A stretch of DNA of 64,000 bases. Origin: Escherichia phage JLBYU32. This document shows positions 6,915 to 24,050 of the stretch, piece by piece. The translations under genes and the position numbers were made by a program. Location: sequence record OK272490.1. One strand, given 5' to 3'. Below the pieces are notes generated by a model. That model worked only from the letters and a program-made list of their open reading frames with translations, was not told where the DNA came from and did not search any database. The first letter of the stretch is position 1. The number at the start of each line of letters is the position of its first letter.

Positions 6915-7700
6915 ATGGGTATTGTAAAAATCATCAATGGGGATATCTTCTCCGCATTTGATAAAGGTAAGTTTGATATTATTGGTCACGGTTGCAACTG
7001 TATGAACTTAATGGGTGCGGGTATCGCTGACAAGATTTCTAAACTTTACCCAAAAGCATATGAGACCGATACAGAAGCTTATCTGTATGCAGGTGGTATA
7101 GGTCACAAACCCTGTGAAAATTTACTAGGAAATTTCTCTGTAGCACGTTTAGAACAAGGCCGTATAGCTAATCTTTACACTCAGCTTAAGACTGGTAAAG
7201 ATGCCCGATACAGTGCTTTAGAGTCATCTTTGAAACAGCTTAACAGATACTGTGAAGTTAATCAGTTGAAGAAAGTCGGGTTACCTATGATTGGTGCAGG
7301 TATCGGTGGGCTAGACCCTCAAGCCGTCACAGTTATCATTAATCAGGTGATGAAGAGTGTAGATGTGTATCTGTATGTTTATGAAGGAGAGATGTACCAC
7401 AAGTTACGCTCAGGTTGGAAGAACTACTGTGAACCAGAATACTTTGCAGGTGTAGTAACGTTCACAGATAATACAGTTACCCTCTTCAGACGAAGAAAAG
7501 GTAAGATACATCAAAGTAACCCTCCGGTTGAAAAGATGTCTCTGAGTAACGCTCTAGTTACCCACCTGTCGAAGAGCAATCACAGGATTGCAGTAACATT
7601 TGGTAGTGATGCAGACACTTATATCTATGCAAGAACTGATGAGGATATCGAGACAGTTTTCTCTTCTCCAGAAGTTATCTTCTTAGACGCAAAGAACTAA
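6915..7700 (+). CDS. macrodomain protein (TARG1/OARD1-like ADP-ribose processing domain) with C-terminal extension
   Basis: DIIGHGCNCMNLMGAGIADKI resembles TARG1 HCISEDCRMGAGIA signature; second glycine-rich loop PMIGAGIGGLDP. Confidence 0.5.
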   Translation: MGIVKIINGDIFSAFDKGKFDIIGHGCNCMNLMGAGIADKISKLYPKAYETDTEAYLYAGGIGHKPCENLLGNFSVARLEQGRIANLYTQLKTGKDARYSALESSLKQLNRYCEVNQLKKVGLPMIGAGIGGLDPQAVTVIINQVMKSVDVYLYVYEGEMYHKLRSGWKNYCEPEYFAGVVTFTDNTVTLFRRRKGKIHQSNPPVEKMSLSNALVTHLSKSNHRIAVTFGSDADTYIYARTDEDIETVFSSPEVIFLDAKN

Positions 7701-7761
7701 GAAACTCTGTAGTATATTCACAATAGACTAAGCCTTTCTTATCTGGTAAATTTTTCAGGTA

Positions 7762-7965
7762 AGGAGGGCTTTTTCATTTCAGATTTGTGCAGGTAGAGTT
7801 CTGTAGAGAAATCTATAGAGAAAATTTTGAACTCCAAAGAGAAAATTCATTTTCAAACTGTGCAGGTAATCTCCAAAGAGCTTTTTCATTTTCAAAACGT
7901 GCAGACCCCGCTCAGGTCGGGCAAGAAAAATCATTTTAGAATTGTGCAGGTAGGTGGGTGCAGGT
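7762..7965 (+). repeat. four direct repeats of ~TTTCATTTTCAAA-N-TGTGCAGGTA in ORF-free intergenic region
   Basis: copies near 7764, 7848, 7884 and 7930 (last with duplicated GTGCAGGT); no ORF >=60 aa in 7701-8208 on the + strand. Confidence 0.7.
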
Positions 7966-8129
7966 GGGAATGTCGCCATTTCTCACAAGGCTACCACATC
8001 TGGAAATAAAAGTCAACAGAAAAATTTGTAGCGGATTGAAAAATAATTCTTGATTGTAGTTCTGTTTTGTGGTAGTCGCGCGCACCCGTTTCATTACAAT
8101 TTTTGCAAAAAATATTTTTAAAATTCCTA

Positions 8130-8158
8130 TTGACTCTTTGAGTATAGTTATCTAATAT
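8130..8158 (+). promoter_or_regulatory. sigma70-like promoter TTGACT-17-TAATAT
   Basis: consensus -35/-10 with 17-bp spacer ~50 bp upstream of first small ORF (8209). Confidence 0.6.
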
Positions 8159-8208
8159 TTGCATCAGACGGGCAATCAAGCCCACTTCCTAAACTGGAGA
8201 TTCAAAAA

Positions 8209-8397
8209 ATGGCATCAAGAAAGATTAAAGTTGGCGATGAGGTTAACATCAAGCACGAATACTCTTACAAAATGCTAACTATACGCTCTTATAAGGTTTA
8301 TCAGGTGGAAGCTATCCACGAAGATAACACTTTTTCCTTAAAAGGTTATAGCGAACGTTTCCCTGCTGAACTCTTTGAGAAATGGAGTGCGAAATAA
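8209..8397 (+). CDS. hypothetical small protein
   Basis: preceded by conserved AAACTGGAGATTCAAAAAATG RBS/start module. Confidence 0.55.
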   Translation: MASRKIKVGDEVNIKHEYSYKMLTIRSYKVYQVEAIHEDNTFSLKGYSERFPAELFEKWSAK

Positions 8398-8603
8398 TGA
8401 TATACAGTCGCGAATTGATGGTTACAACTAACATTCACACAAAGGCAAAACGTTTTTACATGCAAATTTGTGGCGTATGGTCTAGAATATCAGAAGCTGA
8501 CTATTGCAACTATGTAGAAACGTCTATAAACTCTAATTGCTACCTTACAAGAAATACAAGAAAGTACATAAGACAGACAGCAATTTACTACTACGATAAA
8601 TAA
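8397..8603 (+). CDS. hypothetical small protein (start ATG overlapping upstream stop, TAATG)
   Basis: ORF MIYSRELMV...; ends exactly at cassette-associated TAA. Confidence 0.35.
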   Translation: MIYSRELMVTTNIHTKAKRFYMQICGVWSRISEADYCNYVETSINSNCYLTRNTRKYIRQTAIYYYDK

Positions 8604-8690
8604 AGTACTTTACAAGGGGCTTATAGTTCGATAAAGTAAGCCCCAGATAAAGAGCTTTACTAACTAACCTTAAACTAGGAGAATCTGAAA
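8603..8690 (+). repeat. intergenic cassette type A (TAAAGTACTTTACA-GGGGCTTA..TAAGCCCC-AGATAAAGAGCTTTAC + RBS)
   Basis: near-identical copies at 8984, 9592, 10661; stem conserved, loop variable; begins at the stop codon of the upstream gene. Confidence 0.75.
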
Positions 8691-8984
8691 ATGGCTATTA
8701 TCAAAAACGTTGTAATTACTGCAAAAACTCGTGATGACGCTCGCGTTATGGCTAAAAAGTTATGCGGGAAAGTGGTTGACAACGGAAAACAATCTGCTGT
8801 AAGGTGGGGCGTGAAGGCTGATAAACAGTTGAAGTTAAAAAATTCACCGATAAACCTTTTTACATGTGTAAACACTATCGGGAAGACAAATGTATACACG
8901 AAAAAGGCATACATTAGACGCGTAGCATTAACATCCCCCATTCGTACAATGAGAAGTTATGCAAAGCTGAAAATTAACAAATAA
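8691..8984 (+). CDS. hypothetical small basic protein
   Basis: ORF after cassette with GGAGAATCTGAAAATG start context. Confidence 0.55.
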   Translation: MAIIKNVVITAKTRDDARVMAKKLCGKVVDNGKQSAVRWGVKADKQLKLKNSPINLFTCVNTIGKTNVYTKKAYIRRVALTSPIRTMRSYAKLKINK

Positions 8985-9069
8985 AGTACTTTACATGGGG
9001 CTTAAAAGTTGATATCTTAAGCCCCAGATAAAGAGCTTTACCACTCAATCCTAAACTGGAGATTCAAAA
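8984..9069 (+). repeat. intergenic cassette type A
   Basis: TAAAGTACTTTACATGGGGCTTAAAAGTTGATATCTTAAGCCCCAGATAAAGAGCTTTAC. Confidence 0.75.
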
Positions 9070-9582
9070 ATGAAAACTGTAGACGCTACTTTTGAAGTTG
9101 TAAAAGAAAAATTCACCATTATCTATGAAGCGGTAAATTGCTTTGAAGCAAGCCATAATCTTGATAATTGGAAGTTTACAGATGACCATCAAGGCGGTGT
9201 GACTATTAAAAACCCTAACTGTCAGCGTAACGATTTTAAATATGCAATTCCTTTAAATTATAGCCTTAAGCAGCTTTCTAGTGACTATGCAAAACAAGGC
9301 CGGGAAAACCCATCAAAAGAGGCTTATATCAGCTTACAGGAAGAAATAGAAAGAGATTTAGAGGCTTCAGAGTACAACCTTGCCGCGAAAGTTGTGGATG
9401 CAAACGGTAACACGGTTTTAGAAAGTTTTTATCTTGGTTATGCTTTCGATTGGTGCTATCGTGACGGCGATGATTTAGAGGATAGACTAAAAGAAGAGGT
9501 GAGCGATTCAGACGCAGAAACTGAAGTATTAGAACGTTTGGAATCGTTGAAAGACTCAGTGATGAATATCTTTAAGAACTAA
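9070..9582 (+). CDS. hypothetical protein with acidic C-terminus
   Basis: conserved GGAGATTCAAAAATG start module; D/E-rich C-terminal third. Confidence 0.55.
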   Translation: MKTVDATFEVVKEKFTIIYEAVNCFEASHNLDNWKFTDDHQGGVTIKNPNCQRNDFKYAIPLNYSLKQLSSDYAKQGRENPSKEAYISLQEEIERDLEASEYNLAAKVVDANGNTVLESFYLGYAFDWCYRDGDDLEDRLKEEVSDSDAETEVLERLESLKDSVMNIFKN

Positions 9583-9591
9583 ATAGATTTC

Positions 9592-9674
9592 TTTACACGG
9601 GGCTAACAAGCTGATATGATAGCCCCAGATAAAGAGATTTATCAAATAAAGCCCTTAAACTAGGAGATTCTAAA
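9592..9674 (+). repeat. intergenic cassette type A (variant)
   Basis: TTTACACGGGGCTAACAAGCTGATATGATAGCCCCAGATAAAGAG ... AAACTAGGAGATTCTAAAATG. Confidence 0.7.
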
Positions 9675-9971
9675 ATGAAATTATCGAATAAAGTTCGTGA
9701 AAATCTGAGCAAATTACTCAACAAAATTGATTTCATTGAAACATCAAGGAATAGCCATGATGTTATGGAATGGTTACACGGCAAAATAAAAGGTCGTCGT
9801 GTAGTGATTTGCTTATGGAATAGTTGCAGGGAGTATAAAAAACCTGTATTGCAAGTAAATATTTATGATGATACTTTTAAAAGTCCTGTAAAGTCTAAAA
9901 GTGATTTATTAGAATCCTATGAGATAACTTTAAATGGCAAAGTGTCACGTAAAGAGGAAACACCATGTTAA
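9675..9971 (+). CDS. hypothetical small protein
   Basis: ORF following cassette. Confidence 0.55.
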   Translation: MKLSNKVRENLSKLLNKIDFIETSRNSHDVMEWLHGKIKGRRVVICLWNSCREYKKPVLQVNIYDDTFKSPVKSKSDLLESYEITLNGKVSRKEETPC

Positions 9972-10297
9972 TGACTGGTATCACTGCAATCATTGCCATT
10001 TTCGCGCTATATAAGGCATATAAAGCCTATAATCTAGCAAATAAGGCAATCACACAGCAGGTTAGCAATAACCTTGTAGAAAGCTTTCTAGGGCGCCTCA
10101 GTGATGAGCAAATAAAGCGGCTAGAGATGAGCTTCAGATATAAAGCGAAAACCTATCAGATAAGTGACATCTTCAAAGATGATTTTCAGTTAGTCGATGA
10201 TTATAATTCACTGATAAATGCTTTAAATATCAGTGACTTGAAAGACTATTACGCTGTAATTGTTCAAGAATTGAGCAAACGAAAACAAAACAGTTGA
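9965..10297 (+). CDS. hypothetical protein with N-terminal hydrophobic helix
   Basis: ITAIIAIFALY hydrophobic segment; stop TGA lies inside the -35 of the next cassette promoter. Confidence 0.5.
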   Translation: MLMTGITAIIAIFALYKAYKAYNLANKAITQQVSNNLVESFLGRLSDEQIKRLEMSFRYKAKTYQISDIFKDDFQLVDDYNSLINALNISDLKDYYAVIVQELSKRKQNS

Positions 10298-10322
10298 CAC
10301 TGGTTTTTAGATAGATTAAATT
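10294..10322 (+). promoter_or_regulatory. sigma70-like promoter TTGACA-17-TAAATT (cassette type B)
   Basis: exact consensus -35, 17-bp spacer; duplicated at 11162. Confidence 0.6.
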
Positions 10323-10388
10323 ACACATCAACGGGGAGGGAATGACCTTCCCCACTAAGTAAAGTCCTTAAACTAGGAGATTCAAAAA
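10323..10388 (+). repeat. cassette type B hairpin + RBS (ACACATCAACGGGGAGGGAATGACCTTCCCCACTAAGTAAAGTCCTTAAACTAGGAGATTCAAAAA)
   Basis: GGGGAGGGAATGACCTTCCCC stem-loop; copies at 11191, 11758, 12352. Confidence 0.7.
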
Positions 10389-10661
10389 ATGTATACTACT
10401 AACAACGGTCGTACTCTAAATGTCACTCTACGTCACTACATCAACGGGGTGATGCACTTTGAAGACTTACAAGCTGAGCAACATATCTTAGATTGGCAAC
10501 TTGCAGGACTACAAAAAACTGCTACAGGATACGGGAAAAAGATTCCAACCAGTTGGAAAGTATACTACGAAGGCCGTTTGCGCAGAATTTATCAGGATGT
10601 GCAAAGCAATAGCGCATCGAGTTACATCATAGTAAAAGGTAAAAAGCTGCATTTAGTATAA
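10389..10661 (+). CDS. hypothetical small protein
   Basis: ORF after type B cassette. Confidence 0.55.
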   Translation: MYTTNNGRTLNVTLRHYINGVMHFEDLQAEQHILDWQLAGLQKTATGYGKKIPTSWKVYYEGRLRRIYQDVQSNSASSYIIVKGKKLHLV

Positions 10662-10747
10662 AGTACTTTACAAGGGGCTTATAGTTCGATAAAGTAAGCC
10701 CCAGATAAAGAGCTTTACCACTAAATCCTAAATTGGAGAACTTAAAA
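10661..10747 (+). repeat. intergenic cassette type A
   Basis: TAAAGTACTTTACAAGGGGCTTATAGTTCGATAAAGTAAGCCCCAGATAAAGAGCTTTACC, near identical to copy at 8603. Confidence 0.75.
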
Positions 10748-11152
10748 ATGACTATTAATAATCGCGAGTTATCAATCTTAAAAGCACGTTTGACCGTTAA
10801 CCGGATTAATGTTATTACGTCATCAGCACCGGACGAAACATTGCACAACATTATTGGGAAGATTCAAAGCGTTATCTTAGACGTTGAAAACGTAAAAAAC
10901 TCATTGGCTGACGTTGCAGCAGGTATCACGCTAGACGGTGCACAATATGAAATGTCAGACATGTTAGGCAAATCTAAGGTAATGAATAAAGAGTTAGATT
11001 TGAAAATGTTCCGATTTGCTGTTAAAGTGTGGCTATCTGTCGAGTATGACGCTAACTTTGCAATCGCTGACTTTTTCGCCACTTGGTTACAACGTAATTT
11101 GACAAATCATGATTTTCGTGGTATCTGTGATGCAATTTATGCAGAACTCTAA
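10748..11152 (+). CDS. hypothetical protein
   Basis: start moved to ATG at 10748 after GGAGAACTTAAAA module; track start at 10733 lies inside the RBS. Confidence 0.5.
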   Translation: MTINNRELSILKARLTVNRINVITSSAPDETLHNIIGKIQSVILDVENVKNSLADVAAGITLDGAQYEMSDMLGKSKVMNKELDLKMFRFAVKVWLSVEYDANFAIADFFATWLQRNLTNHDFRGICDAIYAEL

Positions 11153-11161
11153 AAAATTTTG

Positions 11162-11190
11162 TTGACACTGGTTTTCAGATAGATTAAATT
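11162..11190 (+). promoter_or_regulatory. sigma70-like promoter TTGACA-17-TAAATT (cassette type B copy)
   Basis: identical architecture to 10294-10322. Confidence 0.6.
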
Positions 11191-11253
11191 ACACATCAAC
11201 GGGGCGGGAATGAACTTCCCCACTAAATAAAGTCCTAAACTGGAGATTCAAAA
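11191..11253 (+). repeat. cassette type B hairpin + RBS
   Basis: GGGGCGGGAATGAACTTCCCC stem-loop then AAACTGGAGATTCAAAAATG. Confidence 0.7.
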
Positions 11254-11595
11254 ATGGCTTATGTAACCGTAATTACCGATAAAGCTGGCTCATCTTGGTC
11301 AACTCAAGTAAGCGATAAGATGTCACCTATGCAGTGCCTAAAATACTTTGAGCAGTGGAATAAAGGCGAGGATGTAAGCCCCTTTCAAGTAATGAAGGTT
11401 ATTCATGTAGACAATGAAGGGAAGAAAACAACGCTGAATAGTGAGTACTATGCAAGCCGTTTTGAAACGAGAAGTAAAACAATGAAACTTTTACGTGAGT
11501 CCGGTTATGCCCATATCGCCGCGTTAATCTGGGATGACCTGCTAAAAAACCAACGTATGAACTATGTAAAACCTGAAAAAATATTCATCAGTTAA
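11254..11595 (+). CDS. hypothetical protein
   Basis: ORF after type B cassette. Confidence 0.55.
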   Translation: MAYVTVITDKAGSSWSTQVSDKMSPMQCLKYFEQWNKGEDVSPFQVMKVIHVDNEGKKTTLNSEYYASRFETRSKTMKLLRESGYAHIAALIWDDLLKNQRMNYVKPEKIFIS

Positions 11596-11627
11596 TCAAT
11601 AACTTACAAAAAACTTTTAAAAAAGTA

Positions 11628-11656
11628 TTGACAATACCCCTTGACATTGGTAACTT
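11628..11656 (+). promoter_or_regulatory. candidate promoter TTGACA-17-TAACTT overlapped by palindrome GTATTGACAATAC
   Basis: perfect 13-bp palindrome centred on the -35; second TTGACA 8 bp downstream. Confidence 0.4.
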
Positions 11657-11724
11657 TGTTCGAGGGGGTTTATCTAAAAAGGATTAACTTAAAAGATTCT
11701 TTATAGATAAGCTTAAAAAATTGC

Positions 11725-11753
11725 TTGCAATCAGATATCAAAACAAGTAAATT
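11725..11753 (+). promoter_or_regulatory. sigma70-like promoter TTGCAA-17-TAAATT
   Basis: same -10 and spacing as type B cassette promoters; followed by type B hairpin. Confidence 0.5.
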
Positions 11754-11757
11754 ACTA

Positions 11758-11815
11758 ATCAACGGGAGGGAATGACCTTCCCCACTAAGTAAAGTCCTAA
11801 ACTGGAGATTCAAAA
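11758..11815 (+). repeat. cassette type B hairpin + RBS
   Basis: AATCAACGGGAGGGAATGACCTTCCCCACTAAGTAAAGTCCTAAACTGGAGATTCAAAA. Confidence 0.7.
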
Positions 11816-12346
11816 ATGAACAAGTTCAAAGCTATCAACTTCATTCGTTCAAATGCTGTAATGTCCAAGCCTGTTAAAGACACCTATGAATTTCGTTGCA
11901 ATGGTGAACATTTCGCAACCATCACCAAATCAGAAAACGGGGCTTATTATATCCATCGTCGTAATGTTTCTACCGTTGTAGTTTCTAACTTTATGCAAGC
12001 TGTAGCGGAACTCCTCCCGCTCTTCATGGAAAAGTATGCCGTACAATGTGAAAGTGTTCGTGAATGCACTAAATCAGTACTTAACGGTTATCGTATGGCT
12101 TACGAGCGCTCTTTAAAGAATCTCAATAAGTACTACAAAGCACCAGAAGGTACTACCTCGACAGCCTACGGGGTAGGGGGCTTCAATGTTAGCCTTTACG
12201 AAGTGGAAGAAATCGAGCTTTACGACCATCGCCCAAATGGTTACGCTAAAACACTGGGGGAAGGGTTAATGATGAATATCAAGAACTTAGAAAAAACTTT
12301 AAGAGAAATTGAAAAAGACATTGACGAGACAATCAAAAATCTGTAA
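11816..12346 (+). CDS. hypothetical protein
   Basis: ORF after cassette. Confidence 0.55.
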   Translation: MNKFKAINFIRSNAVMSKPVKDTYEFRCNGEHFATITKSENGAYYIHRRNVSTVVVSNFMQAVAELLPLFMEKYAVQCESVRECTKSVLNGYRMAYERSLKNLNKYYKAPEGTTSTAYGVGGFNVSLYEVEEIELYDHRPNGYAKTLGEGLMMNIKNLEKTLREIEKDIDETIKNL

Positions 12347-12349
12347 ATT
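12321..12349 (+). promoter_or_regulatory. sigma70-like promoter TTGACG-17-TAAATT inside 3' end of upstream gene
   Basis: same -10/spacing as cassette promoters; precedes type B hairpin. Confidence 0.5.
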
Positions 12350-12351
12350 GT

Positions 12352-12414
12352 CAATCAACGGGGAGGTAATGAACTTCCCCACTACATAAAACCCTTAAAC
12401 TAGGAGATTCAAAA
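12352..12414 (+). repeat. cassette type B hairpin + RBS
   Basis: GGGGAGGTAATGAACTTCCCC stem-loop then AAACTAGGAGATTCAAAAATG. Confidence 0.7.
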
Positions 12415-12663
12415 ATGGCAACTATTCGCGCTACTGTTAACGAATTTGGTTTTTCCTCTCTGGATGTTAAATTTGACATTGTAGGCACTGATAACGCCTT
12501 TGAAATGGTGAAAGGTCTTATCAGTCAGACTATCAAAGGCTATAATCCTTCGGAAGAGTTCTGGGAGGAAACAAAACAAGAAGTTCTCAAGGATGGTTAT
12601 ACTTATCACTATTGGGGAGAAAAAATCGTCTCCCTGTACTACAACAAACAAGATTATAACTAA
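12415..12663 (+). CDS. hypothetical small protein
   Basis: ORF after cassette; last gene of + strand array. Confidence 0.55.
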   Translation: MATIRATVNEFGFSSLDVKFDIVGTDNAFEMVKGLISQTIKGYNPSEEFWEETKQEVLKDGYTYHYWGEKIVSLYYNKQDYN

Positions 12664-14434
12664 TCGACGCAGCGGGGCTAAATAGCCCCAGATACCTTTA
12701 CAGCCCCTTTATTTAGATTCGATAGAGTCTATCTCATAGGGGCTTTTTTACGTCCTATCAAATCCCTTATACAATCCCTTTCCCTTTCCTTTCCAGAATC
12801 TTATCAGACCTTAAAAAGCAATAACTCTATAGTCTACTCTATAGCCTACTCTATAGCCTTTTATCAAATCAACTTAAATATAAGCCCATAACCCGAAAGG
12901 GAAGGGCAACCATTTAAACGCTCTATAAAGCCCTATAACAGCCTTATCAACCTAACTTAAGGGATTGCATTACCTCACCCTTAAAAGCCCTTTATAAAGC
13001 TTCCCAGAGCCTTAAAAGAATCTTATAAGGGTGTAAGCTTTATCATCTCGTTAGCTATCTTGTGAACTACTAAACAACCCCCTTGATAGTCACTAAAAAG
13101 TATGTTATAGGGGCTTTAAAGTTGCTTAAAAGTAGCTTAAAAGTTACTTCAAAGTTACGTAAATGCTAGCCCCCTTAACATTTTCTTAACAATTTCTTAA
13201 CAAACCCTACATAGTTATGCTTGTTAGCAACTTGTTAGCCCCTTGTTAAATCTCTGTTAAGACCACGTAAAAGCCTTGTAAGAGTCTTTGACATAGCCTT
13301 TAAAGCCCCTGTAAAGCCCTATAAAGAGCTATCTGTACAGTTGGGCTGTAGTTACTAGGGAGAGACTTAAAAGGGGCTATACAGAGCTATACAGAGCTTT
13401 TAAGAGGTATGTTTAGAGAATCACTAAGAAAGGAAAGGGAACGATAAGAAAAGATAGTTGTGTTTGTAAACAACCACTGTGACCATGTTAATAGCTTGTT
13501 AAAAAGGTTAAACACTTGTTAGGAACTTGTTAATTATCTTAACAAAATAACTCTTAAAAATTAACTTGTTAGCTCTTGTTAGTCATCTGTTAAGATTCTG
13601 TAAAGACTATTCAGCACTTGTTAATTGGTATTGTTACCAATCCCTAGAAAACTGTTACAGCCTTGTTAGTTCTGTTAAGAATCTGTTAAGACCTTTGAAG
13701 AATTGTTAAGAAGATGTGAGAACTGTTAAGAGATTGTTAAGGATATTTTAAAATTCTGCAAAGGGGGTGTTAAGGAGCTGTTAAGGGCTACCAAGCAGAT
13801 ATACATCTTCTACAGATATTTTTCAGTTCCTTCAAAGACCCTAAAAAATGACTTGATAGTCCTATTTTATAAAAATTTTAAAAATCTGAATAATTACCTA
13901 TACAGTCTTTTAAAAATACAGGTAGAAACAGGCTTATAAGATACCTTGTTAGTACCGTGTTAGACCTTGTGAGATAAGGTCTGTAAAGATATTCCTGTTA
14001 AGTTTGTTAAAACAGTCTATATAGAGGCTTAGTAATACCTAGTGAACACCTATAGAGGGTGACATAGCTGACATAGAGATTAAGAGGTGTATAGGAGCTT
14101 CTAAGAGTGTGTAGAGAGATGGTTAAGGTGATTGTATAGGTTGTTTAGAAGGCTTGTTAGAAGAGTGTTTAGAAGGCTTGTTAGAGGGCTTGTTAGAAGG
14201 GTTATACAGAGGGGCTATTAAGACCACTAGATAGTTACTAAGATACTATATAGTACTATATAACTATATATATATAGAGAGTAAGATTAAGAAGGTTGTT
14301 AAGAAGGATAGATATTTGTTCACATATGATGGTGACCCAGAGGTTGGGACAACCGATAAAATTTTATAAAAAGTATAAATTTCGTAAATTTTACTCAATA
14401 AAAAGCCCCCGATTAAGGAGGCTCTTAAGATATT
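12664..14434. repeat. 1.7 kb ORF-free, repeat-dense region between convergent gene blocks
   Basis: no ORF >=60 aa on either strand; tandem CTCTATAG(T/C)CTA x3 (~12826-12860), GCTTGTTAGA(A/G)G x4 (~14143-14200), dozens of YTGTTAR units, TATATA tract ~14246-14280. Confidence 0.8.
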
Positions 14435-15058
14435 TTAAATCAGTGTTTCCAGAACTGTTTTAAGGGATGACTTAGTTGTCTGATAAAAATGAGTGAATCC
14501 GTTGTTGTTATCGAATATCTGCATCATGATATCATCTCCCTTGATTGGGTATACTCGGATATCATAGTGAAAACCATTAAAGACACAAGACCCATTACAG
14601 AATGCACTAAAGTCATCCACTGAGATATACTCTTCATGTCCTGTGATTTTTATACAAACACCTTTACTCGGTCTCTTAGGGTTGATATCTTCCATCACAG
14701 ACATACTCTGTCCACCAAGAGACACCATAGTGACCACTTTACGGTTCTTCTGTCTAAAGTACATCTTAACTTTCTGCAAAGTGTCTTCATAGAACGGATA
14801 AGACCTTTCTACAAAGATTCCTTCAAGTGGCTCTTTACCATTTTCAACTTCTCGGTTATGCCGTACTGCAAAGATAATTTGTTCGAACCAGTCAAGATTT
14901 TCTTCGGAGAGTGCTTCCCGAACATCCTTCCAGTCAAGTACTAAGTAGTTACCTTCAACTTCTTTTAAGTTATCTTTTTCCATATCTATCACACCATTAT
15001 CGTAAAACTTGATATTCTGGTACTGCGAATTTATTACTATTGTTCTTGATGAGGTCAT
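14435..15058 (-). CDS. hypothetical protein
   Basis: first gene of - strand block; 207 aa. Confidence 0.5.
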   Translation of the reverse strand: MTSSRTIVINSQYQNIKFYDNGVIDMEKDNLKEVEGNYLVLDWKDVREALSEENLDWFEQIIFAVRHNREVENGKEPLEGIFVERSYPFYEDTLQKVKMYFRQKNRKVVTMVSLGGQSMSVMEDINPKRPSKGVCIKITGHEEYISVDDFSAFCNGSCVFNGFHYDIRVYPIKGDDIMMQIFDNNNGFTHFYQTTKSSLKTVLETLI

Positions 15059-15461
15059 CTTCTGAAACTAAAAATGTAACCCCACATAAGTGTCTGTAAC
15101 GACTATCATACTCGAATATCTTAAACAGATATTTACCATCATGATAAACCTGTTGCACTTCGCCTTCTGCAACAATCTCGCCTGTAATAAAATTTTTTAG
15201 TTTATACACATTACCAACTTTAGGTACTGTTTTCATCTCAGGCTCTTTTAGTGCTACACCTATTTTTGCATCACCGAGTAAGTGAGAACTTTCAAACGCT
15301 ACATATTGCATATAAGCCTCTGAGCATTCCCAGATAAAACAGTGTACAAGAACCTTAGCAGCATGTCTTGAGCAATTCAACTTATCACAAATCTCTTTGT
15401 ACATGTCATCTTTAGTTGAGTTGTCAAGCATTGCTTTTTGAACGACTTCTTTAATTTTCAT
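14997..15461 (-). CDS. hypothetical protein
   Basis: ORF. Confidence 0.5.
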   Translation of the reverse strand: MKIKEVVQKAMLDNSTKDDMYKEICDKLNCSRHAAKVLVHCFIWECSEAYMQYVAFESSHLLGDAKIGVALKEPEMKTVPKVGNVYKLKNFITGEIVAEGEVQQVYHDGKYLFKIFEYDSRYRHLCGVTFLVSEDDLIKNNSNKFAVPEYQVLR

Positions 15462-15491
15462 AAACTCTTTACCTATATAACCTTTCGTTTC

Positions 15492-15764
15492 TTAAAGCCT
15501 ATCAATTTGAAATTCTTCAGGTAACTCAGCAACCACTTTTAAATAGTAAGCGTCAGAGATTGTATGCTTTGTCTCATAGCTACCATTCTTAATCCAGTTA
15601 TAATTTTCTGGTACTCCATCATCATTACAGAAACCTGAGTACATAATTGCTCTGTGGATTATATTTTTATTAGAGTATGCAACATCTACAATATAGTATG
15701 TTTTTTCTTTCCAACCACCTTCAGGTTTACAAATACCTGAGATACCTTCTAATTCTGGTGTCAT
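15492..15764 (-). CDS. hypothetical protein
   Basis: ORF. Confidence 0.5.
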   Translation of the reverse strand: MTPELEGISGICKPEGGWKEKTYYIVDVAYSNKNIIHRAIMYSGFCNDDGVPENYNWIKNGSYETKHTISDAYYLKVVAELPEEFQIDRL

Positions 15765-15820
15765 TTCGCTACCTTCTAAGTTTCTATAAAGGGGCTATCA
15801 AGTAACCCCTCAAGCTACTA

Positions 15821-16042
15821 CTAAGACTTTTCAGTCTTCTTGTCGGATTTCTTACTAGTCTTCTTCTCAGCTTTCTGTTCAGGTTCCTTTTCAGGAGTTG
15901 CCTTGATAACCATATCAAGAAGCTCTGATAAGTCACTCTTCAGCAAAGTAACAGGCTGCTCATTGTAGAAGTTTTTGTCAAGATAAACTTTGAACTCTTC
16001 AATAGATGGAAATCCAAAAATTGGTACAGGTGTCTTAATCAT
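15821..16042 (-). CDS. hypothetical protein with lysine-rich C-terminal tail
   Basis: ORF; KAEKKTSKKSDKKTEKS tail. Confidence 0.45.
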   Translation of the reverse strand: MIKTPVPIFGFPSIEEFKVYLDKNFYNEQPVTLLKSDLSELLDMVIKATPEKEPEQKAEKKTSKKSDKKTEKS

Positions 16043-16118
16043 TACTTAGTTTCTCCATAGGCATCTTTTAAGATTGCCTTGTTAATCATTTCAGCGATTG
16101 CAAAACGAACACATACAG

Positions 16119-16652
16119 CTATAATTGTAGGTTGCATTCTTTACTTACCTCTTCAAGTTTAACCTCAGAGTCCTTAAGTCGTTTCTTATGAACTCTGAAC
16201 CTCATTAGTGAGATGATGATACCAGCTAAAGGAACAGTATACAAGTACCAAACATCATGTACCTTTGCAGTAATCTGTGTAATGGTCAAGTCTTGAGATA
16301 TACAACTGATTGCTGATACTGCCAGTAACATTGCTAAGAAGAACGCCAGTACCATAACAATACTCAGGCATCCTCTGGCATGGTGTTCATGCTTAATGCA
16401 CTTATTCTTTTCGTCAACAACTCTGTTGTAGTCATTTGTAAAGTCTCTGTAGAAAGCTTTCAAGTATTCTTGAGTGTAGCCTTCAAAGCAACCTGTACCG
16501 TACCAATAATCACCACCAAAATGTGCTATGATACCAGTCTCTCCATTTGGTTTGGTTACTCTTAGTGAAGTATGATGACCAGTCTTCTGATAATCTATCT
16601 TGTATCTTTCTTCGTAAATCATTTCCCAACCCCTCTCAATCGTTTGTTCCAC
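16119..16652 (-). CDS. hypothetical membrane protein (soluble N-domain + two predicted TM helices)
   Basis: hydrophobic segments LSIVMVLAFFLAMLLAVSAISCI and LYTVPLAGIIISL. Confidence 0.5.
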   Translation of the reverse strand: MEQTIERGWEMIYEERYKIDYQKTGHHTSLRVTKPNGETGIIAHFGGDYWYGTGCFEGYTQEYLKAFYRDFTNDYNRVVDEKNKCIKHEHHARGCLSIVMVLAFFLAMLLAVSAISCISQDLTITQITAKVHDVWYLYTVPLAGIIISLMRFRVHKKRLKDSEVKLEEVSKECNLQL

Positions 16653-16837
16653 TCAAGGTCAACAAGTCTTTGCAGGACTTTCCCTCTAGGTGTTACACCT
16701 TTTAAATCTGCATCGTAGCAACGGTAAAAGTCACCTTCAGCGTGTTTACCATAGCATTTTCTGATATTCTGACTCCTACGATATTGTTCTAATAGGGACA
16801 GTTTGTAGTAATCTTCAACTGTAGTTAGTTTTTTCAT
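16619..16837 (-). CDS. hypothetical protein
   Basis: ORF. Confidence 0.4.
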   Translation of the reverse strand: MKKLTTVEDYYKLSLLEQYRRSQNIRKCYGKHAEGDFYRCYDADLKGVTPRGKVLQRLVDLEWNKRLRGVGK

Positions 16838-16909
16838 TTTTCACCACGCATCTTCTTAAGAAGCTAAAAAGGGAACTACCTCTCGATAGCTCCCATTATA
16901 GTCAATATT

Positions 16910-17500
16910 TTATACTCGGCAAGAGTACTTCTTAGGCATTAATGCACTGCGTTTGCTACTTTCTTCACTCAATAGTGCGATAAAGTCATCACCTTTACCT
17001 TTCCACGGGCTGAATGAAGGGATATGCTCACGAATAGCCTCAATAACCGTCTTAAGTGCTGTGTTCTTCATCCACCAATCAGAATCTGCTGATGCAACCA
17101 CGTAGTATCCACCGTCATCAGTTAAAATTGGCTCTGAAATACATGGTGAAATCAAAGTGGTGATGATTGAACCGTTGTTCATGTAGTATGTGCGCTTCAT
17201 AACCTTTTCAAGAAGCTTGTGAAGGTCACCAAACAGTGTTACAAGTTCTTTGTGGTCAATGTCTTTTTCTAGGTTTGCTCGATACTTCAATAGTGCAGCA
17301 TCAACCTCTCTGTCATTAAACTTGAAATATTGAACTTCATCAACAAGGCAAACACTTATGTTGTTAACATTCATAGTCAGCTTGCAAACTTTTGCAGGAG
17401 AGTTGATGCTTGGTTGAAAAAGTGCAACACACCCTTCAATATTTCCAAAGTGTTGTACAAGTGTTACTTGTGGAATGATATCCTGTTGCTCTTCGGACAT
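16910..17500 (-). CDS. hypothetical protein
   Basis: ORF. Confidence 0.5.
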   Translation of the reverse strand: MSEEQQDIIPQVTLVQHFGNIEGCVALFQPSINSPAKVCKLTMNVNNISVCLVDEVQYFKFNDREVDAALLKYRANLEKDIDHKELVTLFGDLHKLLEKVMKRTYYMNNGSIITTLISPCISEPILTDDGGYYVVASADSDWWMKNTALKTVIEAIREHIPSFSPWKGKGDDFIALLSEESSKRSALMPKKYSCRV

Positions 17501-17844
17501 TACAGTTTCCTCATTAAATATTTTTTAAGTTGTGTGTTAGGTTTCTCAAAAACTTCTATAGAAGATATCTTGACAGCTTCACCACGCATACCAGTATGTT
17601 TGAATATATAGTACTCTAACATCCCTATGTACTTTGCTGGCAAGTCATGCTTGACATACACCGTCACAGAATCTTCAAATTCGACAACCTTTGTACCATC
17701 TTTATAGTTGAACTCTTTAGGATGGTTGTAGTTGTCTATGTCATACATTAAAAAGAGTCTTTTCCGTTGCATGTCAAGCTTATTGGTTAAAGACTCTTTG
17801 ATATCTGAGAAGTTTTTGTAAACTGTGACATGGAGCTTACTCAT
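17500..17844 (-). CDS. hypothetical protein
   Basis: ORF with overlapping start/stop. Confidence 0.5.
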   Translation of the reverse strand: MSKLHVTVYKNFSDIKESLTNKLDMQRKRLFLMYDIDNYNHPKEFNYKDGTKVVEFEDSVTVYVKHDLPAKYIGMLEYYIFKHTGMRGEAVKISSIEVFEKPNTQLKKYLMRKL

Positions 17845-18130
17845 CGTTAAACTCTCTGACGAAGAAATAGTTGACTTTGTTATTACCTACCATAAGGTCA
17901 AAGCAGGTATTCTCAAAAGGCTTGTTGTAGGCATCATAAGAAGTATATGTATCAGCTACTTGTTTAGTATTCAGCTTTTTACTTGATGGGTTTAAGAGAC
18001 CACCATACAACTTCTTGATAGCCTCTTCTACAACAGACCAGATGATTTCGTCAGTAATTTCTTCGTACAGGTCAAGTTCACGCTCTAGTGAGAAGTCACA
18101 AATAGGGAAGATAACCTGTACTTTGCTCAT
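17837..18130 (-). CDS. hypothetical protein
   Basis: ORF. Confidence 0.5.
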   Translation of the reverse strand: MSKVQVIFPICDFSLERELDLYEEITDEIIWSVVEEAIKKLYGGLLNPSSKKLNTKQVADTYTSYDAYNKPFENTCFDLMVGNNKVNYFFVREFNDE

Positions 18131-18519
18131 TAACGAATAACCTGTGAAACTTGAATTGCTTCAGTTACAGACAAATCACCAACTTTCTCTTCTTTGATAA
18201 AAGTGAATGTGAGTTCAACAGGCTCTTGCTCTTCTTGCTCAACTGGAATGCCATTAAGCTCATCAAAGATTGATTGGGTAGTCCAGTCTTCTCCACCATC
18301 TGGATAATGGATGGCGTAAAGAGGAAACTCCATGTCATACCAGCCAAATACAGGGCAACCATCTGCATCATCTCGCATTCTGCGAAGGGTGCTACCTGAG
18401 CCTGTAAAGCGAAGACTAATATTTCCATTACACTCAAAAATCACTGCGTCAGCAAGTCCAGCATCTTCCCGACCATCATGGCCAAAGGTGTCAACTTTTA
18501 CTTGAATCTCTTTATTCAT
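18130..18519 (-). CDS. hypothetical acidic protein
   Basis: ORF. Confidence 0.5.
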   Translation of the reverse strand: MNKEIQVKVDTFGHDGREDAGLADAVIFECNGNISLRFTGSGSTLRRMRDDADGCPVFGWYDMEFPLYAIHYPDGGEDWTTQSIFDELNGIPVEQEEQEPVELTFTFIKEEKVGDLSVTEAIQVSQVIR

Positions 18520-18910
18520 AAAAACCTCTCTCTGCTTGTTCGATTTTTGCTCTTAAAGCTTCACAATGTTGAAAATGATAGTTAGCCTCTTGTTCATGTG
18601 TTGCTAACTGCCTTTCAAGAACAGTTTTATAATAACTTGCAAGTTGCTCTTTTGTCAATGGGTGTTCTGAAATAATATCAAGTCCACTTTCACCAAGAGG
18701 GTTGAATTGTCCATGTTCATTGACATTGTAAGTCTCAAACTTGAAGAGTCCATTGTTCACAGACTCAATAGGCGACAGCTCAACAAGCTCTACAGTAAAC
18801 CGTGTATATACCTTGTCACCTCTTGAAACCACATTGTTTCCGACAATGCGTACAAGCGAGCCATTACGAGTGTACTTAAAAGTTCCAAAGTCACTAGCCC
18901 AAAGTTTCAT
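18512..18910 (-). CDS. hypothetical protein
   Basis: ORF with AAGGAG RBS after - strand terminator. Confidence 0.5.
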   Translation of the reverse strand: MKLWASDFGTFKYTRNGSLVRIVGNNVVSRGDKVYTRFTVELVELSPIESVNNGLFKFETYNVNEHGQFNPLGESGLDIISEHPLTKEQLASYYKTVLERQLATHEQEANYHFQHCEALRAKIEQAERGFYE

Positions 18911-18925
18911 AATTTTCTCCTTAGA

Positions 18926-18952
18926 AAATAAAAAAGGCTCCCGAAGGAGCCT
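18926..18952 (-). terminator. rho-independent terminator (- strand)
   Basis: GGCTCC-TTCG-GGAGCC hairpin followed by U-tract on - strand, downstream of endolysin. Confidence 0.6.
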
Positions 18953-18961
18953 ATGAAGATA

Positions 18962-19426
18962 TTACTTTGGATATACACTGTCAAGATAAATGTCAGCTTC
19001 CATTCTACGTCTGTTTTTCAGGCCGTTTGAAGTGACCTTCTTACCTTTGACTGTAACCTTGTTCCACCACTGCATAGCTTCTGCACAACCGACCTTATTA
19101 CCAGCATTGTGGCGCTTGATAAATGTAGAATCCTGCATAGCTGTGATACCGATGTTGTATGTTTCACTTACAAGTGCATCGAACTCGTTCTGAGAAGTTG
19201 GAACCTTGATAGCTTTATTCACTGCTGCAACGAACTTCTCAACATCTGCAAGAAGATACTGTTCAGCTTGTTCAGCAGTAATTTTCATACCCATCTTAAC
19301 AGGTTTTCCGTCAATACGGATTGTCCCATACCCGATTGTTGGGATTCCGGCAGAGTCTTCGTAAGCCTCTAACTTCAGACCTTCAAAGAACTTAATAGCC
19401 TCTAAACCTTTTCTTGAGAGTTGCAT
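18962..19426 (-). CDS. endolysin, T4-lysozyme-like (GH24 family)
   Basis: EGLKLEAYEDSAGIPTIGYG resembles T4 lysozyme catalytic N-terminus (E..D..T motif); 154 aa. Confidence 0.75.
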   Translation of the reverse strand: MQLSRKGLEAIKFFEGLKLEAYEDSAGIPTIGYGTIRIDGKPVKMGMKITAEQAEQYLLADVEKFVAAVNKAIKVPTSQNEFDALVSETYNIGITAMQDSTFIKRHNAGNKVGCAEAMQWWNKVTVKGKKVTSNGLKNRRRMEADIYLDSVYPK

Positions 19427-20061
19427 TATGCCTCCCCTGCTGGGTTAACAGTAACTGTTGCTGCATCTGAGGTAACACTTGTTCCACCCTCTCCAGATAC
19501 AACGCAAGTGTATGAACCAGTGTCAGAAGGTACTACTGACTGTTTTGTGTAAGTTGCAGAATTGGCACTAGGGATGTCCTCACCATCCTTTTTCCACTGA
19601 TATCCAGTGGCGTTAGTTGCTAGAATGCTTAGAGTAAGTGTGTCACCCTCATTGACTGTTTGACCTGTTGGTTGCTGAGTAATTGTTGGTGGCTTAATAG
19701 CATCCTTCAACTTAGCATTCAACATTGAGAACGGCTTAACTCTTGCCAACCATTCACAGTAAATTGTGTCAACATCTTTACCATTGATGATTGCATACTG
19801 CAAATCCATGAAGAAATCAGCAGTTCTCATCTGTGCACCAACACTGTAAAGGAGTTCATCACTAAAAGGGACTTTGTAGTCTGGTTTGTAGTCAAACTTC
19901 TTAACCTCTGCAATATCAGCTTCAGGCCAATATGAGCTATAGGTGAGTGGTAAAATAGCCTCTTGATATGTTCTAAAATCATATCTCTTACCAGCTTTTA
20001 CGTTTGCAATGAAGCCCTTCACAAACTCTTTGAAGTCTGGGTAAGTCTTTGCTTTAATCAT
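19426..20061 (-). CDS. hypothetical protein with C-terminal Ig-like domain
   Basis: C-terminal ~85 aa (TITQQPTGQTVNEGDTLTLS...YQWKKDG...DTGSYTCVV) has Ig-like hallmarks; N-domain paralogous to next gene. Confidence 0.5.
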   Translation of the reverse strand: MIKAKTYPDFKEFVKGFIANVKAGKRYDFRTYQEAILPLTYSSYWPEADIAEVKKFDYKPDYKVPFSDELLYSVGAQMRTADFFMDLQYAIINGKDVDTIYCEWLARVKPFSMLNAKLKDAIKPPTITQQPTGQTVNEGDTLTLSILATNATGYQWKKDGEDIPSANSATYTKQSVVPSDTGSYTCVVSGEGGTSVTSDAATVTVNPAGEA

Positions 20062-20429
20062 TTCTTTTTAGCCTCTAAATGTGCGTTTAGTCTAAAATAA
20101 CCTTTGTGATTCGGAGATACATCACCAACGACAATACCTTTAACCTTATAACCTTTACCAATTACATACTGGATATCCATAAGGAATCTTCCAAGGCCAA
20201 CAATATGGAACATTGGGTATAATAGACTCTCAGAGTCTGGAATATTGATTTCAGGTTTGTAGATACGCTGTTCGCTTGTTGGTGTAATATCTTCTTCAGG
20301 CCATTTACTGAGTCTCCATGTCAAAGGTGTTGGGATAACATCATTAAGGCTGTACCTTTCACCATTTTGCACGGAATTGATATAGGATTGTAGGAAGCAA
20401 TAAAAGTCTTTTGCACTCTTAGCCTTCAT
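20058..20429 (-). CDS. hypothetical protein, paralog of N-domain of 19426-20061 product
   Basis: shared motifs (FMDxQY.I..GK, WPExDI) with the adjacent gene. Confidence 0.5.
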   Translation of the reverse strand: MKAKSAKDFYCFLQSYINSVQNGERYSLNDVIPTPLTWRLSKWPEEDITPTSEQRIYKPEINIPDSESLLYPMFHIVGLGRFLMDIQYVIGKGYKVKGIVVGDVSPNHKGYFRLNAHLEAKKK

Positions 20430-20476
20430 TAAATATCCTTATAAATAATTAAAGGGGCATCAGCCCCTATTCACAC

Positions 20477-21067
20477 TTAAGCTTTGGTCTTAAGTAGGTT
20501 CTTAAGTTTTTTAAGATTCATACTCTCATCAAACTTAAAACCAAATCCATTGACATAATCAATGAACTCGGATTTCTTACTAAGTGACAATGCGTAACTC
20601 ATATCAAAGTTCTTACTTGTTTCTGCGTCTGGACTAGAGTTCACATCAAATGAAATTTCTGTAGGCTCTTGCTTACTTTTTCTCATATTATCAATTAACA
20701 AACATGTATAGTTTGCTGGATAGAAGTTTACACTACCATCAACGTAGCTGTACTTATTATTGTGGATAAGGTTGGAAAAGACCTTAAGGAATGTTTCTGA
20801 GTCGTGGCAAACAAGTTTGAATTGGCTGCTCTCTCCAAGCGCAACTAATGAATACGGACTTTCACTATCAAAGTCATAATTTGGATTAGATGCCGTCACT
20901 GTTACACGCATCAAGTTATTAGCAATAGTCTTCTGTTTAAAAGAATTTTGAACATAGTGAAGACCTCTATCACACTGATTGACTAGCTCTTTAAGTAGGT
21001 CATTTGCATATGGTGAATTAATTGATACAGAGCCATCACTATTGTAATTAAAACTTACTGTTAACAT
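20477..21067 (-). CDS. hypothetical protein
   Basis: ORF. Confidence 0.5.
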   Translation of the reverse strand: MLTVSFNYNSDGSVSINSPYANDLLKELVNQCDRGLHYVQNSFKQKTIANNLMRVTVTASNPNYDFDSESPYSLVALGESSQFKLVCHDSETFLKVFSNLIHNNKYSYVDGSVNFYPANYTCLLIDNMRKSKQEPTEISFDVNSSPDAETSKNFDMSYALSLSKKSEFIDYVNGFGFKFDESMNLKKLKNLLKTKA

Positions 21068-21294
21068 TTTTCAGTTCTCCTGCGATTTATAATTTTGCTG
21101 CAATAGAGAAACGAAGTAAACTCACTGGAAGAAACCACTAAGTGTTGTTCACTAGATTGAGCCATTGCCCTGAAATACATTCCAGTCAAAGCATCATAGT
21201 GACTATTCTTTCCAATTGAGGTTATATAGCCATGACTCTTTGCAGTTTGATATAAATCTATAATATCTGCGATTTCTAATTGGGAACTACACAT
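21061..21294 (-). CDS. hypothetical protein
   Basis: ORF. Confidence 0.4.
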   Translation of the reverse strand: MCSSQLEIADIIDLYQTAKSHGYITSIGKNSHYDALTGMYFRAMAQSSEQHLVVSSSEFTSFLYCSKIINRRRTEKC

Positions 21295-23796: not shown

Positions 23797-23803
23797 AATT
23801 AAT

Positions 23804-23881: not shown

Positions 23882-23883
23882 GT

Positions 23884-24049: not shown

Positions 24050-24050
24050 A

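Follow-up and report, generated by a model that had tools for sequence, protein, structure and literature searches.

Escherichia phage JLBYU32 (sequence record OK272490.1) carries an array of small open reading frames (ORFs) separated by repeated intergenic cassettes. The array was studied in a 64-kb stretch of this genome, called hereafter the window, and the positions of the array and its cassettes are given on the + strand of the window. The array is probably a hyperplastic early-gene region whose promoter/hairpin/leader cassettes double as recombination linkers. Each of its modules would comprise one or two small ORFs, and the composite regulatory cassettes of ~92 nucleotides (nt) that separate the modules would join a host sigma-70 promoter, a G+C-rich stem-loop acting in the sense RNA and a shared leader with GGAG 8 nt before ATG. 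The cassettes are 85–100% alike and could therefore serve as homology patches for recombination, which would delete, insert, duplicate or replace whole modules without disturbing the expression of their neighbours. An earlier note on this DNA, made from the sequence alone, had described two cassette families among the small ORFs and had likened them to the promoter–stem-loop units (PeSLs) of T4-type phages. Both families were found where it had placed them, far above chance.

Occurrence of the two cassette families

The window belongs, as judged from its sequence, to a Felix O1-like myovirus of the Ounavirinae. Its positions 8000–13000, used as megablast query, matched 258 phage records that are nearly all from Felix O1-like myoviruses (Salmonella, Escherichia, Shigella, Citrobacter). 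The top match, Felix O1, aligned in four segments that together cover 90% of the query at 89% identity, and none of the 258 records matched the interval contiguously. The first position of the window is close to the conventional genome start, and the array region corresponds to Felix O1 genes 14–23. The array holds 11 small ORFs of no known function between intrinsic terminators at 7730–7780 and 12702–12750. A cassette is found upstream of nine of the 11 ORFs, and the two ORFs starting at 8397 and 9965 instead overlap the preceding stop codon. The small-ORF array of the earlier note is thus real, but its statement that about ten ORFs are each preceded by a cassette has to be amended for the two coupled genes. 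The array also begins further upstream than the 8584–12700 interval then proposed, with an entry cassette, P0 (8130–8211), and the ORFs 8209–8397 and 8397–8603.

Type A is present in four copies named A1 to A4 (8601–8693, 8982–9072, 9580–9677 and 10659–10750), and Type B in four copies (B1 to B4) plus the B-like variant P0 at 8130. The window cassettes measure 91–107 nt from the upstream stop codon to ATG, typically ~92 nt. The sequence CTTTACANGGGGCT, with at most two mismatches, has 15 matches versus 1.2 expected; the 22-mer AGCCCCAGATAAAGAGCTTTAC has four versus 0 expected, a Type B 31-mer three versus 0 (a repeat search adds a fourth copy at 11723) and a leader 21-mer four versus 0.01. The repeat search groups the copies into a 79-nt family of four members and an 82-nt family of three. 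All window copies lie within one 4.6-kb array, and none was found elsewhere in the 64-kb window or in positions 40–86 kb of Felix O1. When one Type A cassette was compared by blastn to 50,697 phage records it matched 287 of them, all Felix O1-like/Ounavirinae, among which Erwinia phages have about 75% identity. A search of Rfam gave no matching family.

Relatives were represented by four GenBank regions and 29 IMG/VR loci, fetched via the conserved macro-domain/phosphatase gene that lies just upstream of the array. Their + strand genes were called and clustered into families, to which the family numbers below refer, and cassettes were located by script; the counts cover 32 genomes and the junction survey spacers of 55–125 nt. 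The 266 junctions surveyed comprise 134 of Type A, 103 of Type B and 29 others. The 237 junctions with one of the two cassettes have spacers mostly of 90–98 nt. The other 29 are mostly a terminator-type spacer between families 17 and 18. At this 17|18 junction (e.g., 8052–8123 of locus L004) a ~70-nt spacer without promoter hexamers carries a terminator-like hairpin, GCCCCTTGTAGGGGCTTTT, followed directly by a Shine-Dalgarno (SD) sequence and ATG. The two-gene 17/18 module is absent from the window.

Predicted promoter elements

An independent consensus scan calls a promoter in eight of the nine window cassettes (the four Type A, three of Type B and P0), each with a 17-nt spacer. Type A, which the earlier note had described without a promoter, also carries a promoter-like TTTACA-17-TAnnnT whose -10 hexamer is within the hairpin loop. 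Among 117 unique Type A copies of the 32 genomes TTTACA is invariant. It is followed by TAnnnT at a distance of 17 nt in 110 copies and of 18 nt in 6, with a single exception (TAAAGC). The three middle positions of the -10 hexamer take all four bases, and its three key positions are kept in 116/117 copies. Pairing cannot explain the invariant TA because it sits in the unpaired loop. At the sequence level, the conservation of TTTACA/TAnnnT is the pattern expected of a sigma-70 -10 element.

Type B was analyzed in 96 unique copies anchored at TCAACGGGG, of which the upstream 42 nt were examined. The -35-like hexamers are TTGACA, TTGATT, TTGACG, TTGCAA or TAGACA, spaced by 17 nt from a -10 hexamer TAAATT or TAAAGT. 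The spacer and the sequence upstream vary with the upstream gene, and are often within its coding sequence, but hexamers and spacing are kept. The motif TTGACA-17-TAAATT by which the earlier note had defined Type B is exact in B1 and B2; B3 has TTGCAA and B4 has TTGACG, the latter inside the preceding coding sequence.

Judged by the spacing customary in sigma-70 promoters, transcription from Type A would start at or beside the A of the invariant AGATAAAG. As this position comes after the hairpin, the helix would be carried only by read-through RNA from upstream. Promoter activity and start points of both cassette types are proposed here on the grounds of hexamer conservation and spacing. An AT-rich tract upstream of the -35, which is a feature of PeSLs, was also looked for: in Type A only 8–12 nt (TAAAGTAC or similar) separate the stop codon from the -35, and the region upstream of the Type B -35 is A-rich but often coding.

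Hairpins

The Type A hairpin has a G4...C4 stem that extends across the promoter spacer and the -10. Its arms were re-anchored at GGGG/CCCC since the MAFFT alignment of the whole cassette gapped the hairpin inconsistently. The hairpin so anchored has nine pairs, with pairs 1–7 paired in every one of the 117 unique copies. Pair 7 is T-A in 93 copies and A-T in 24, pair 8 is A-T in 91 and T-A in 17, and four kinds of pair are seen at pair 9. T·G wobbles number 70 and G·T wobbles 2. Read on the opposite strand the T·G wobbles would become C·A mismatches, and the structure is thus specific to the sense strand and points to RNA. Beyond a 3x3 internal loop the cassette flanks provide 11 further pairs, which results in an interrupted helix of ~20 bp whose outer pair 11 covaries (G-C in 92 copies, T-A in 15). 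A loop-free alignment of 54 distinct arm sets has 96.7% of its cells paired versus 89.5% in column shuffles (0/500 reach the observed value) and 31–58% when partners are slid. Compensatory double changes are seen in 73 cells versus 22 in shuffles, a count inflated by the shared ancestry of the copies. The four window copies fold with −21.5 to −24.5 kcal/mol (z-scores of −4.9 to −6.7). The wobbles and the covariation of the flanks suggest RNA-level constraints on Type A, and with them a processing or stabilising role besides that of promoter. The helix, found in read-through RNA right after the upstream stop codon, would most likely be a processing or 3'-protecting structure.

About 11 nt separate the Type B hairpin from the -10, which puts it within a few nucleotides of the predicted 5' end. 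Nearly all of the 39 distinct Type B stems fold, with −4 to −15.6 kcal/mol versus about −3 for shuffles. Hairpins proximal to the 5' end are mRNA stabilisers in E. coli, and protection of the mRNA would be the most likely role of the Type B hairpin. The sequence after the cassette hairpins is AGATAAAG or ACTAA.

Shared leader

Both cassette types end with CCT(T)AAACT(A)GGAG, from which ATG is separated by an A-rich spacer, usually of 8 nt. This leader corresponds to the common initiation context reported in the earlier note; it is present in all nine window cassettes and at 232/237 junctions in relatives, and GGAG is 8 nt from ATG at 164/237. The leader has two forms because the T after CCT and the A before GGAG always occur together (93 copies versus 0). 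According to a fold model the paired insertion would add one pair to a small SD-sequestering hairpin. Linkage is an equally good explanation, the two bases being only 8 nt apart. Each leader form is found with Type A and with Type B in similar proportions, which identifies the cassettes themselves as mosaics.

Modular gene content and probable recombination

An invariant gene order among relatives, which would have spoken against shuffling at the cassettes, was not observed: the 21 complete arrays have 20 different gene contents. Families 9, 10, 11, 13 and 19 are present in 21/21 arrays and family 8 in 20/21, and presence varies for about 18 families. The place of a missing module is taken by a single intact cassette of normal length, which is sometimes chimeric. 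At junction 16|13, formed when family 22 is absent, all five hybrids keep the left half of the 16|22 cassette, and the 16|13 cassette of L025 switches to the 22|13 type in its right half.

Identity between arrays changes in steps that fall at module edges. The window ORF of family 16 (8691–8984) is 99.3% identical to that of L025 and its flanking cassettes are 88% and 85% identical. The genes of families 20 and 19 are 78% and 97% identical, respectively, to those of L016, and 93% and 66% to those of L012. Between genomes, cassettes of one and the same junction are 92% alike; the value for different junctions is 86%. More than half of the cassettes (55%) are most similar to a copy from another junction, and seven 84-nt cores recur without change at two or more junctions. 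These sequence relationships indicate exchange or conversion among cassette copies. The cassette halves were compared with their neighbours (left half with the upstream gene, right half with the downstream gene), a test in which the flanking genes are themselves correlated. Recombination at the cassettes would be favoured rather than merely tolerated.

Note that module 16 of L027 is present as an exact tandem duplication (7091–7778; 258/258 nt) with two Type A cassettes fused head to tail at ATG|CTTTACA. This arrangement is either the product of unequal exchange between cassettes or an assembly artefact.

Weighing of alternative functions

Several observations weigh against cassettes that act as promoters and as recombination linkers. 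Type A has weak -10 hexamers (TAAAGT, TATCTT) with a G+C-rich discriminator downstream, and promoter-like sites in the region number 21 versus 14.8 ± 4.9 in shuffles, which is not above chance. Transcription-start, reporter or processing data for any Felix O1-like phage were not found in the searched literature. The Type A copies are related to each other and the structure was read from these same copies, so the pairing and folding figures are less independent than they look. No U tract follows any cassette hairpin, and the terminator scan detects none at the cassettes, only the one at 7730–7780; without U tracts, the terminator role that belongs to the PeSL concept is doubtful. The order of genes in the arrays is mostly colinear. 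Its variation comes mainly from gain, loss and allele replacement, with few true transpositions such as the order of families 27 and 36 in L010, opposite to that in L002 and L007, or the divergent family-38 homologue found at another place in L027. Lastly, the discordance of identity between neighbouring genes, a measure confounded by the differing evolutionary rates of genes, is 0.045 across the coupled, cassette-free pair 13|8 versus 0.024–0.142 across cassette junctions. The discordance is thus not clearly larger across cassettes, and recombination would not be confined to them.

A possible but less probable function of Type A is mainly that of RNase III-type processing sites comparable to those of the T7 early region, a role that it might also have in addition to the others. 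On this view the helix would be the cleavage site of a long early transcript begun at P0 and at the Type B promoters, and the remaining 3' hairpin would stabilise the upstream message, the hexamers being secondary or inactive. In the predicted helix the 3x3 internal loop separates a 9–10-bp upper stem from a lower stem of 11 bp that has one mismatch, and the whole structure starts exactly at the upstream stop codon. This architecture, the covariation at outer pair 11, the T·G wobbles that point to RNA-level structure and the lack of a U tract, hence of a classical terminator, are all consistent with processing. Pairing leaves unexplained, however, the invariant unpaired TA exactly 17 nt from the invariant TTTACA, and most outer-stem positions never vary and so are uninformative on pairing. 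A combined function is more doubtful still: Type A would be dual-coded, as promoter in DNA and as RNase III-type helix in read-through RNA, with the array genes expressed from their own start or from processed message, and its hairpin might be a recombination substrate resembling the attC sites of integrons instead of a passive patch of homology. If true, dual-coded Type A with structure-guided exchange would be a self-contained gene-cassette system in a lytic phage without integrase. It is unlikely that the hairpins are terminators or attenuators insulating the modules, as was proposed and assayed for the PeSLs of phages RB49 and phi1. Their intergenic G4...C4 stems of −12 to −24 kcal/mol, the reduction of downstream reporter expression by PeSL stem-loops (PMC2839356) and the annotation of two of these sites as terminators in the wV8 record, though on the opposite strand, agree with such a role. 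The lack of U tracts makes efficient termination by the cassette hairpins improbable: there is no T run after them, the scan reports none at cassettes, and genuine U-tract terminators mark the array borders and, in relatives, the 17|18 junction. Moreover, if the Type B hairpin were a terminator, the transcript that carries it would end prematurely.

The remaining explanations are weaker. Conservation of a translation signal only, resembling the start-associated sequences (SAS) as was suggested for phage Mordin, with the rest of the cassette a neutral duplicated spacer, has a low probability. It would account for the leader CCT(T)AAACT(A)GGAGAnnnAAAATG common to both types, with its prevalent GGAG spacing, for the 26-bp repeat noted upstream of 8 genes in Mordin (PMC4611695) and for the paired T/A insertion, which has no exception in 93 copies and would extend the SD-sequestering hairpin, although the inserted bases may simply be linked. 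It leaves unexplained the conserved hexamers, their fixed 17-nt spacing and the stem covariation found upstream of the leader. Very little likelihood is given to the palindromic flanks of Type A (TAAAGTACTTTA, TAAAGAGCTTTA) being operators at which a dimeric phage or host regulator shuts off early promoters, with the long hairpin as a by-product. TAAAGTACTTTA is a perfect 12-bp palindrome over the -35 and a similar sequence is found at about +4 to +15, both nearly invariant. Yet variants such as A3 (TAGATTTCTTTA / TAAAGAGATTTA) lose self-palindromy and keep the complementarity between flanks by paired changes, the T·G wobble at outer pair 10 in 110/117 copies fits RNA pairing and not a DNA operator, and Type B is devoid of such palindromes. 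The cassettes can hardly be selfish miniature inverted-repeat elements that insert between genes, the least probable of the explanations considered. Type A does have imperfect inverted repeats of ~24 nt and many copies, but all copies have the same orientation and run from stop codon to start codon at a fixed distance, they are confined to one array with none outside Ounavirinae among the 50,697 phage records, and target-site duplications were not seen in them. The reading of the cassettes as promoter/hairpin/leader units that double as recombination linkers is the preferred one.

Genes and cassettes of the array

The array is entered through P0 (8130–8211), whose predicted promoter TTGACT-17-TAATAT is followed by the hairpin GGGC-AATCAA-GCCC (8170–8183) and the leader CCTAAACTGGAGATTCAAAAAATG, with ATG at 8209. 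These elements were identified by promoter scan, fold and leader match, and a full Type B cassette occupies this position in relatives. The first ORF (8209–8397; 62 aa, family 38, phrog_15633) is downstream of P0 and is found in 4/21 complete arrays. It is translationally coupled via a TAATG overlap to the second ORF (8397–8603; 68 aa, family 26, phrog_5293). Cassette A1 follows, with TTTACA (8609)-17-TAAAGT, an extended hairpin at 8601–8659, the leader form CCTTAAACTAGGAG and a fold of −21.5 kcal/mol (z −4.9). It precedes the family 16 ORF (97 aa, phrog_5089). In A2 the hexamers are TTTACA (8990)-17-TATCTT with TG before the -10 (−24.5 kcal/mol, z −6.4), and the ORF downstream is at 9070–9582 (170 aa, family 22, phrog_4190). 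A3 has TTTACA (9592)-17-TATGAT, again with TG before the -10, and its flanks are variant but compensated (TAGATTTC / GAGATTTA; −23.6 kcal/mol, z −6.7). It is followed by the ORF 9675–9971 (98 aa, family 13, phrog_4401) and by an ORF that overlaps the latter without a cassette between them (9965–10297; 110 aa, family 8, phrog_4375).

The TGA stop codon of this last gene is inside the TTGACA of B1 (10293–10391), the first of the Type B cassettes, with TTGACA (10294)-17-TAAATT, the hairpin GGGGAGGGAATGACCTTCCCC at 10333–10353 and then the leader. The ORF 10389–10661 (90 aa, family 9, phrog_3436) separates B1 from A4, which has TTTACA (10667)-17-TAAAGT, is identical to A1 in its first 60 nt and folds with −21.5 kcal/mol (z −6.1). 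Next are the ORF 10748–11152 (134 aa, family 10, phrog_4327), the cassette B2 (11150–11256; TTGACA (11162)-17-TAAATT, hairpin GGGGCGGGAATGAACTTCCCC) and the ORF 11254–11595 (113 aa, family 11, phrog_4318). An extra conserved non-coding element of 127 nt (11596–11722) lies upstream of B3. It features TTGACA-17-TAACTT and two hairpins, the first followed by UUUAU, has an RNA fold z of −4.8, is 92–96% identical in relatives and contains no ORF of at least 30 aa. In distant relatives a 46-aa ORF is found instead at this junction between the 113-aa ORF and B3. The element is possibly a small RNA or an internal pair of terminator and promoter. B3 (11723–11818; TTGCAA-17-TAAATT, hairpin GGGAGGGAATGACCTTCCC) precedes the ORF 11816–12346 (176 aa, family 20, phrog_4725), whose product is 100% identical to gp23 of Escherichia phage JLBYU32. 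B4 (12320–12417) has its TTGACG (12321)-17-TAAATT inside the end of this ORF and the hairpin GGGGAGGTAATGAACTTCCCC. The last array gene is the ORF 12415–12663 (82 aa, family 19). Families 20 and 19 each have two allele classes in relatives, with 93% and about 78% identity for the former, and 89–97% and about 68% for the latter.

Ten array ORFs, all except the 82-aa ORF 12415–12663, were scanned and gave no credible Pfam match; their PHROG matches are exclusively families of 'unknown function'. Relatives of the 176-aa protein carry a precomputed assignment to the Pfam family PF26821, which the local Pfam-A scan did not report. The AlphaFold2 (AF2) model of this protein (pLDDT, the predicted local distance difference test score, of 73) has no fold match, nor did predicted folds of array ORFs have significant matches. 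All homologues retrieved with the 170-aa and 176-aa ORFs are from Felix O1-like relatives. These results neither favour nor contradict the proposal of the earlier note that the small ORFs are candidate host-takeover or anti-defence factors.

The upstream boundary of the array is the intrinsic terminator at 7730–7780, located after the macro-domain/phosphatase gene and identified by the terminator scan as a 17-pair stem followed by a T run. The 350-nt spacer between it and the array entry promoter contains three direct repeats of ~35 nt (TCATTTnAGAnTTGTGCAGGTAG) at 7774–7953. At the downstream boundary (12664–12750) a degenerate Type A remnant, GGGGCTAAATAGCCCC-AGATACCTTTAC (12674–12700), is followed by an intrinsic terminator (12702–12744 plus a U run) that was seen by folding and not in the terminator scan. 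This region has an RNA fold of −32.7 kcal/mol (z −5.0). The two border terminators are t13 and t23 of Felix O1, in which the array genes are transcribed 5 to 25 min after infection (PMC3185647).

A non-coding stretch of ~1.7 kb (12750–14430) lies between the + strand array and a − strand small-ORF cluster. It is dense in short repeats with a period of 10–12 nt: ACTCTATAGCCT x3 at 12824–12859, CTTAAAAGTTA x4.5 at 13114–13163, CTTGTTAGCAA at 13220–13248, TCTGTTAAGAA x6.8 at 13671–13741 and TTAGAAGGCTTG x4.7 at 14145–14200. Their helical-period phasing suggests a protein-binding array, e.g., an origin, a packaging site or a regulator sink. The − strand cluster (14435–21294) was found to have no repeated intergenic cassettes of any detectable kind, and the cassette organization is thus specific to the + strand array. 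The window also contains 25 tRNA genes at 23720–28640; 22 are reported for Felix O1 (PMC3185647).

Comparison with known systems

The repeats have been recorded before in Felix O1-like phages. Of the 'direct repeats' of Felix O1, that of 57 bp coincides with the Type A core and that of 39 bp with the Type B promoter; they were listed without functional, structural or evolutionary reading and are not among the promoters predicted in that work (PMC3185647). The GenBank record of wV8 annotates them as DR_1 to DR_9, and they are not mentioned in the wV8 paper. The announcement of Mordin described its 26-bp repeat as 'reminiscent of SAS' (PMC4611695). The searched literature, which is incomplete, did not provide a reading of these repeats as composite promoter-hairpin cassettes or a link to modular exchange, and none of the searched publications that use the term PeSLs for phages deals with Felix O1-like ones. 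A PeSL-like reading would assign a function to what the Felix O1, wV8 and Mordin annotations hold only as repeats. The SAS and extended SAS (ESAS) of cluster K mycobacteriophages are likewise short conserved sequences just upstream of start codons in one genome arm. They differ in sequence and host, the leader is here only the 3' third of a larger unit, and the comparison rests on the Mordin note.

The early genes of T7 have RNase III sites (R0.3 to R1.3) that are interrupted hairpins between early cistrons. Type A shares with them an interrupted hairpin of ~20 bp with an internal loop, placed between small early cistrons transcribed by the host RNA polymerase; the T7 sites, however, have no embedded promoter and are not repeated at 85–100% identity. 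Phage morons differ in that they are not bounded by conserved linkers. Integron gene cassettes, to which the PeSL authors compared their units (PMC2839356), are also small accessory genes bounded by a repeated hairpin-forming element (attC). In contrast to integrons, no integrase was identified and each module has its own predicted promoter.

PeSLs provide the closest parallel. They were defined as intergenic units of about 100 bp that extend from the upstream stop codon to the SD/ATG of the next gene and combine a sigma-70-like promoter with a GGGG...CCCC stem-loop with G-T pairs, whose position is between the two hexamers, on the -10 or directly after it (Arbiol et al. 2010, PMC2839356). They cluster among ORFans in hyperplastic regions, mediate indels that leave chimeric units, and their stem-loops lowered the expression of a downstream reporter (PMC2839356). 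Exchange between adjacent PeSLs also gives rise to excised circles of DNA (mini-circles). Each T4-like lineage has its own PeSL sequences, e.g., TTTACW-N17-TAYWAT in T4/PST (Comeau et al. 2014, PMC4122927), and membership is for this reason a matter of architecture. Among the features of the likeness advanced in the earlier note, extent, promoter hexamers, hairpin, ORFan region and cassette-bounded indels were recovered by sequence analysis and comparison. As in the PeSLs of RB49/phi1, T4/PST and KVP40/nt-1, the unit covers about 100 bp from stop codon to ATG and has sigma-70-like -35/N17/-10 elements, the T4/PST consensus being close to Type A. The stem-loop pairs a G-run with a C-run and includes G-T pairs; it is over the spacer and -10 in Type A and just downstream of the -10 in Type B. 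The units are similarly clustered among ORFans in a hyperplastic region, and bound indels that leave chimeras behind. The differences are the phage lineage, Ounavirinae instead of T4-like, with no sequence similarity (all BLAST matches of Type A are Ounavirinae), the confinement to a single array rather than several hyperplastic regions, the pairing of the Type A flanks into an interrupted helix of ~20 bp, the lack of a U tract after the hairpins, and a leader with its ribosome-binding site far more conserved than described for PeSLs. On this comparison of sequences, the view that the cassettes are a lineage-specific PeSL-like set in Ounavirinae is essentially right.

Felix O1-like phages are widely used for typing and biocontrol of Salmonella and E. 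coli. With about 260 of their genomes sequenced, the array is a good natural data set for the study of module turnover. Host-range or anti-defence genes could be sought in this circumscribed region, and the array offers a prepared insertion site for engineered payloads whose expression should be predictable. PeSLs are so far described only in T4-like phages in the searched literature. The presence in Ounavirinae of cassettes that are unrelated in sequence and equivalent in architecture suggests a general, convergent route to flexible accessory genes in lytic phages, in which units made of promoter, hairpin and leader would double as recombination linkers.

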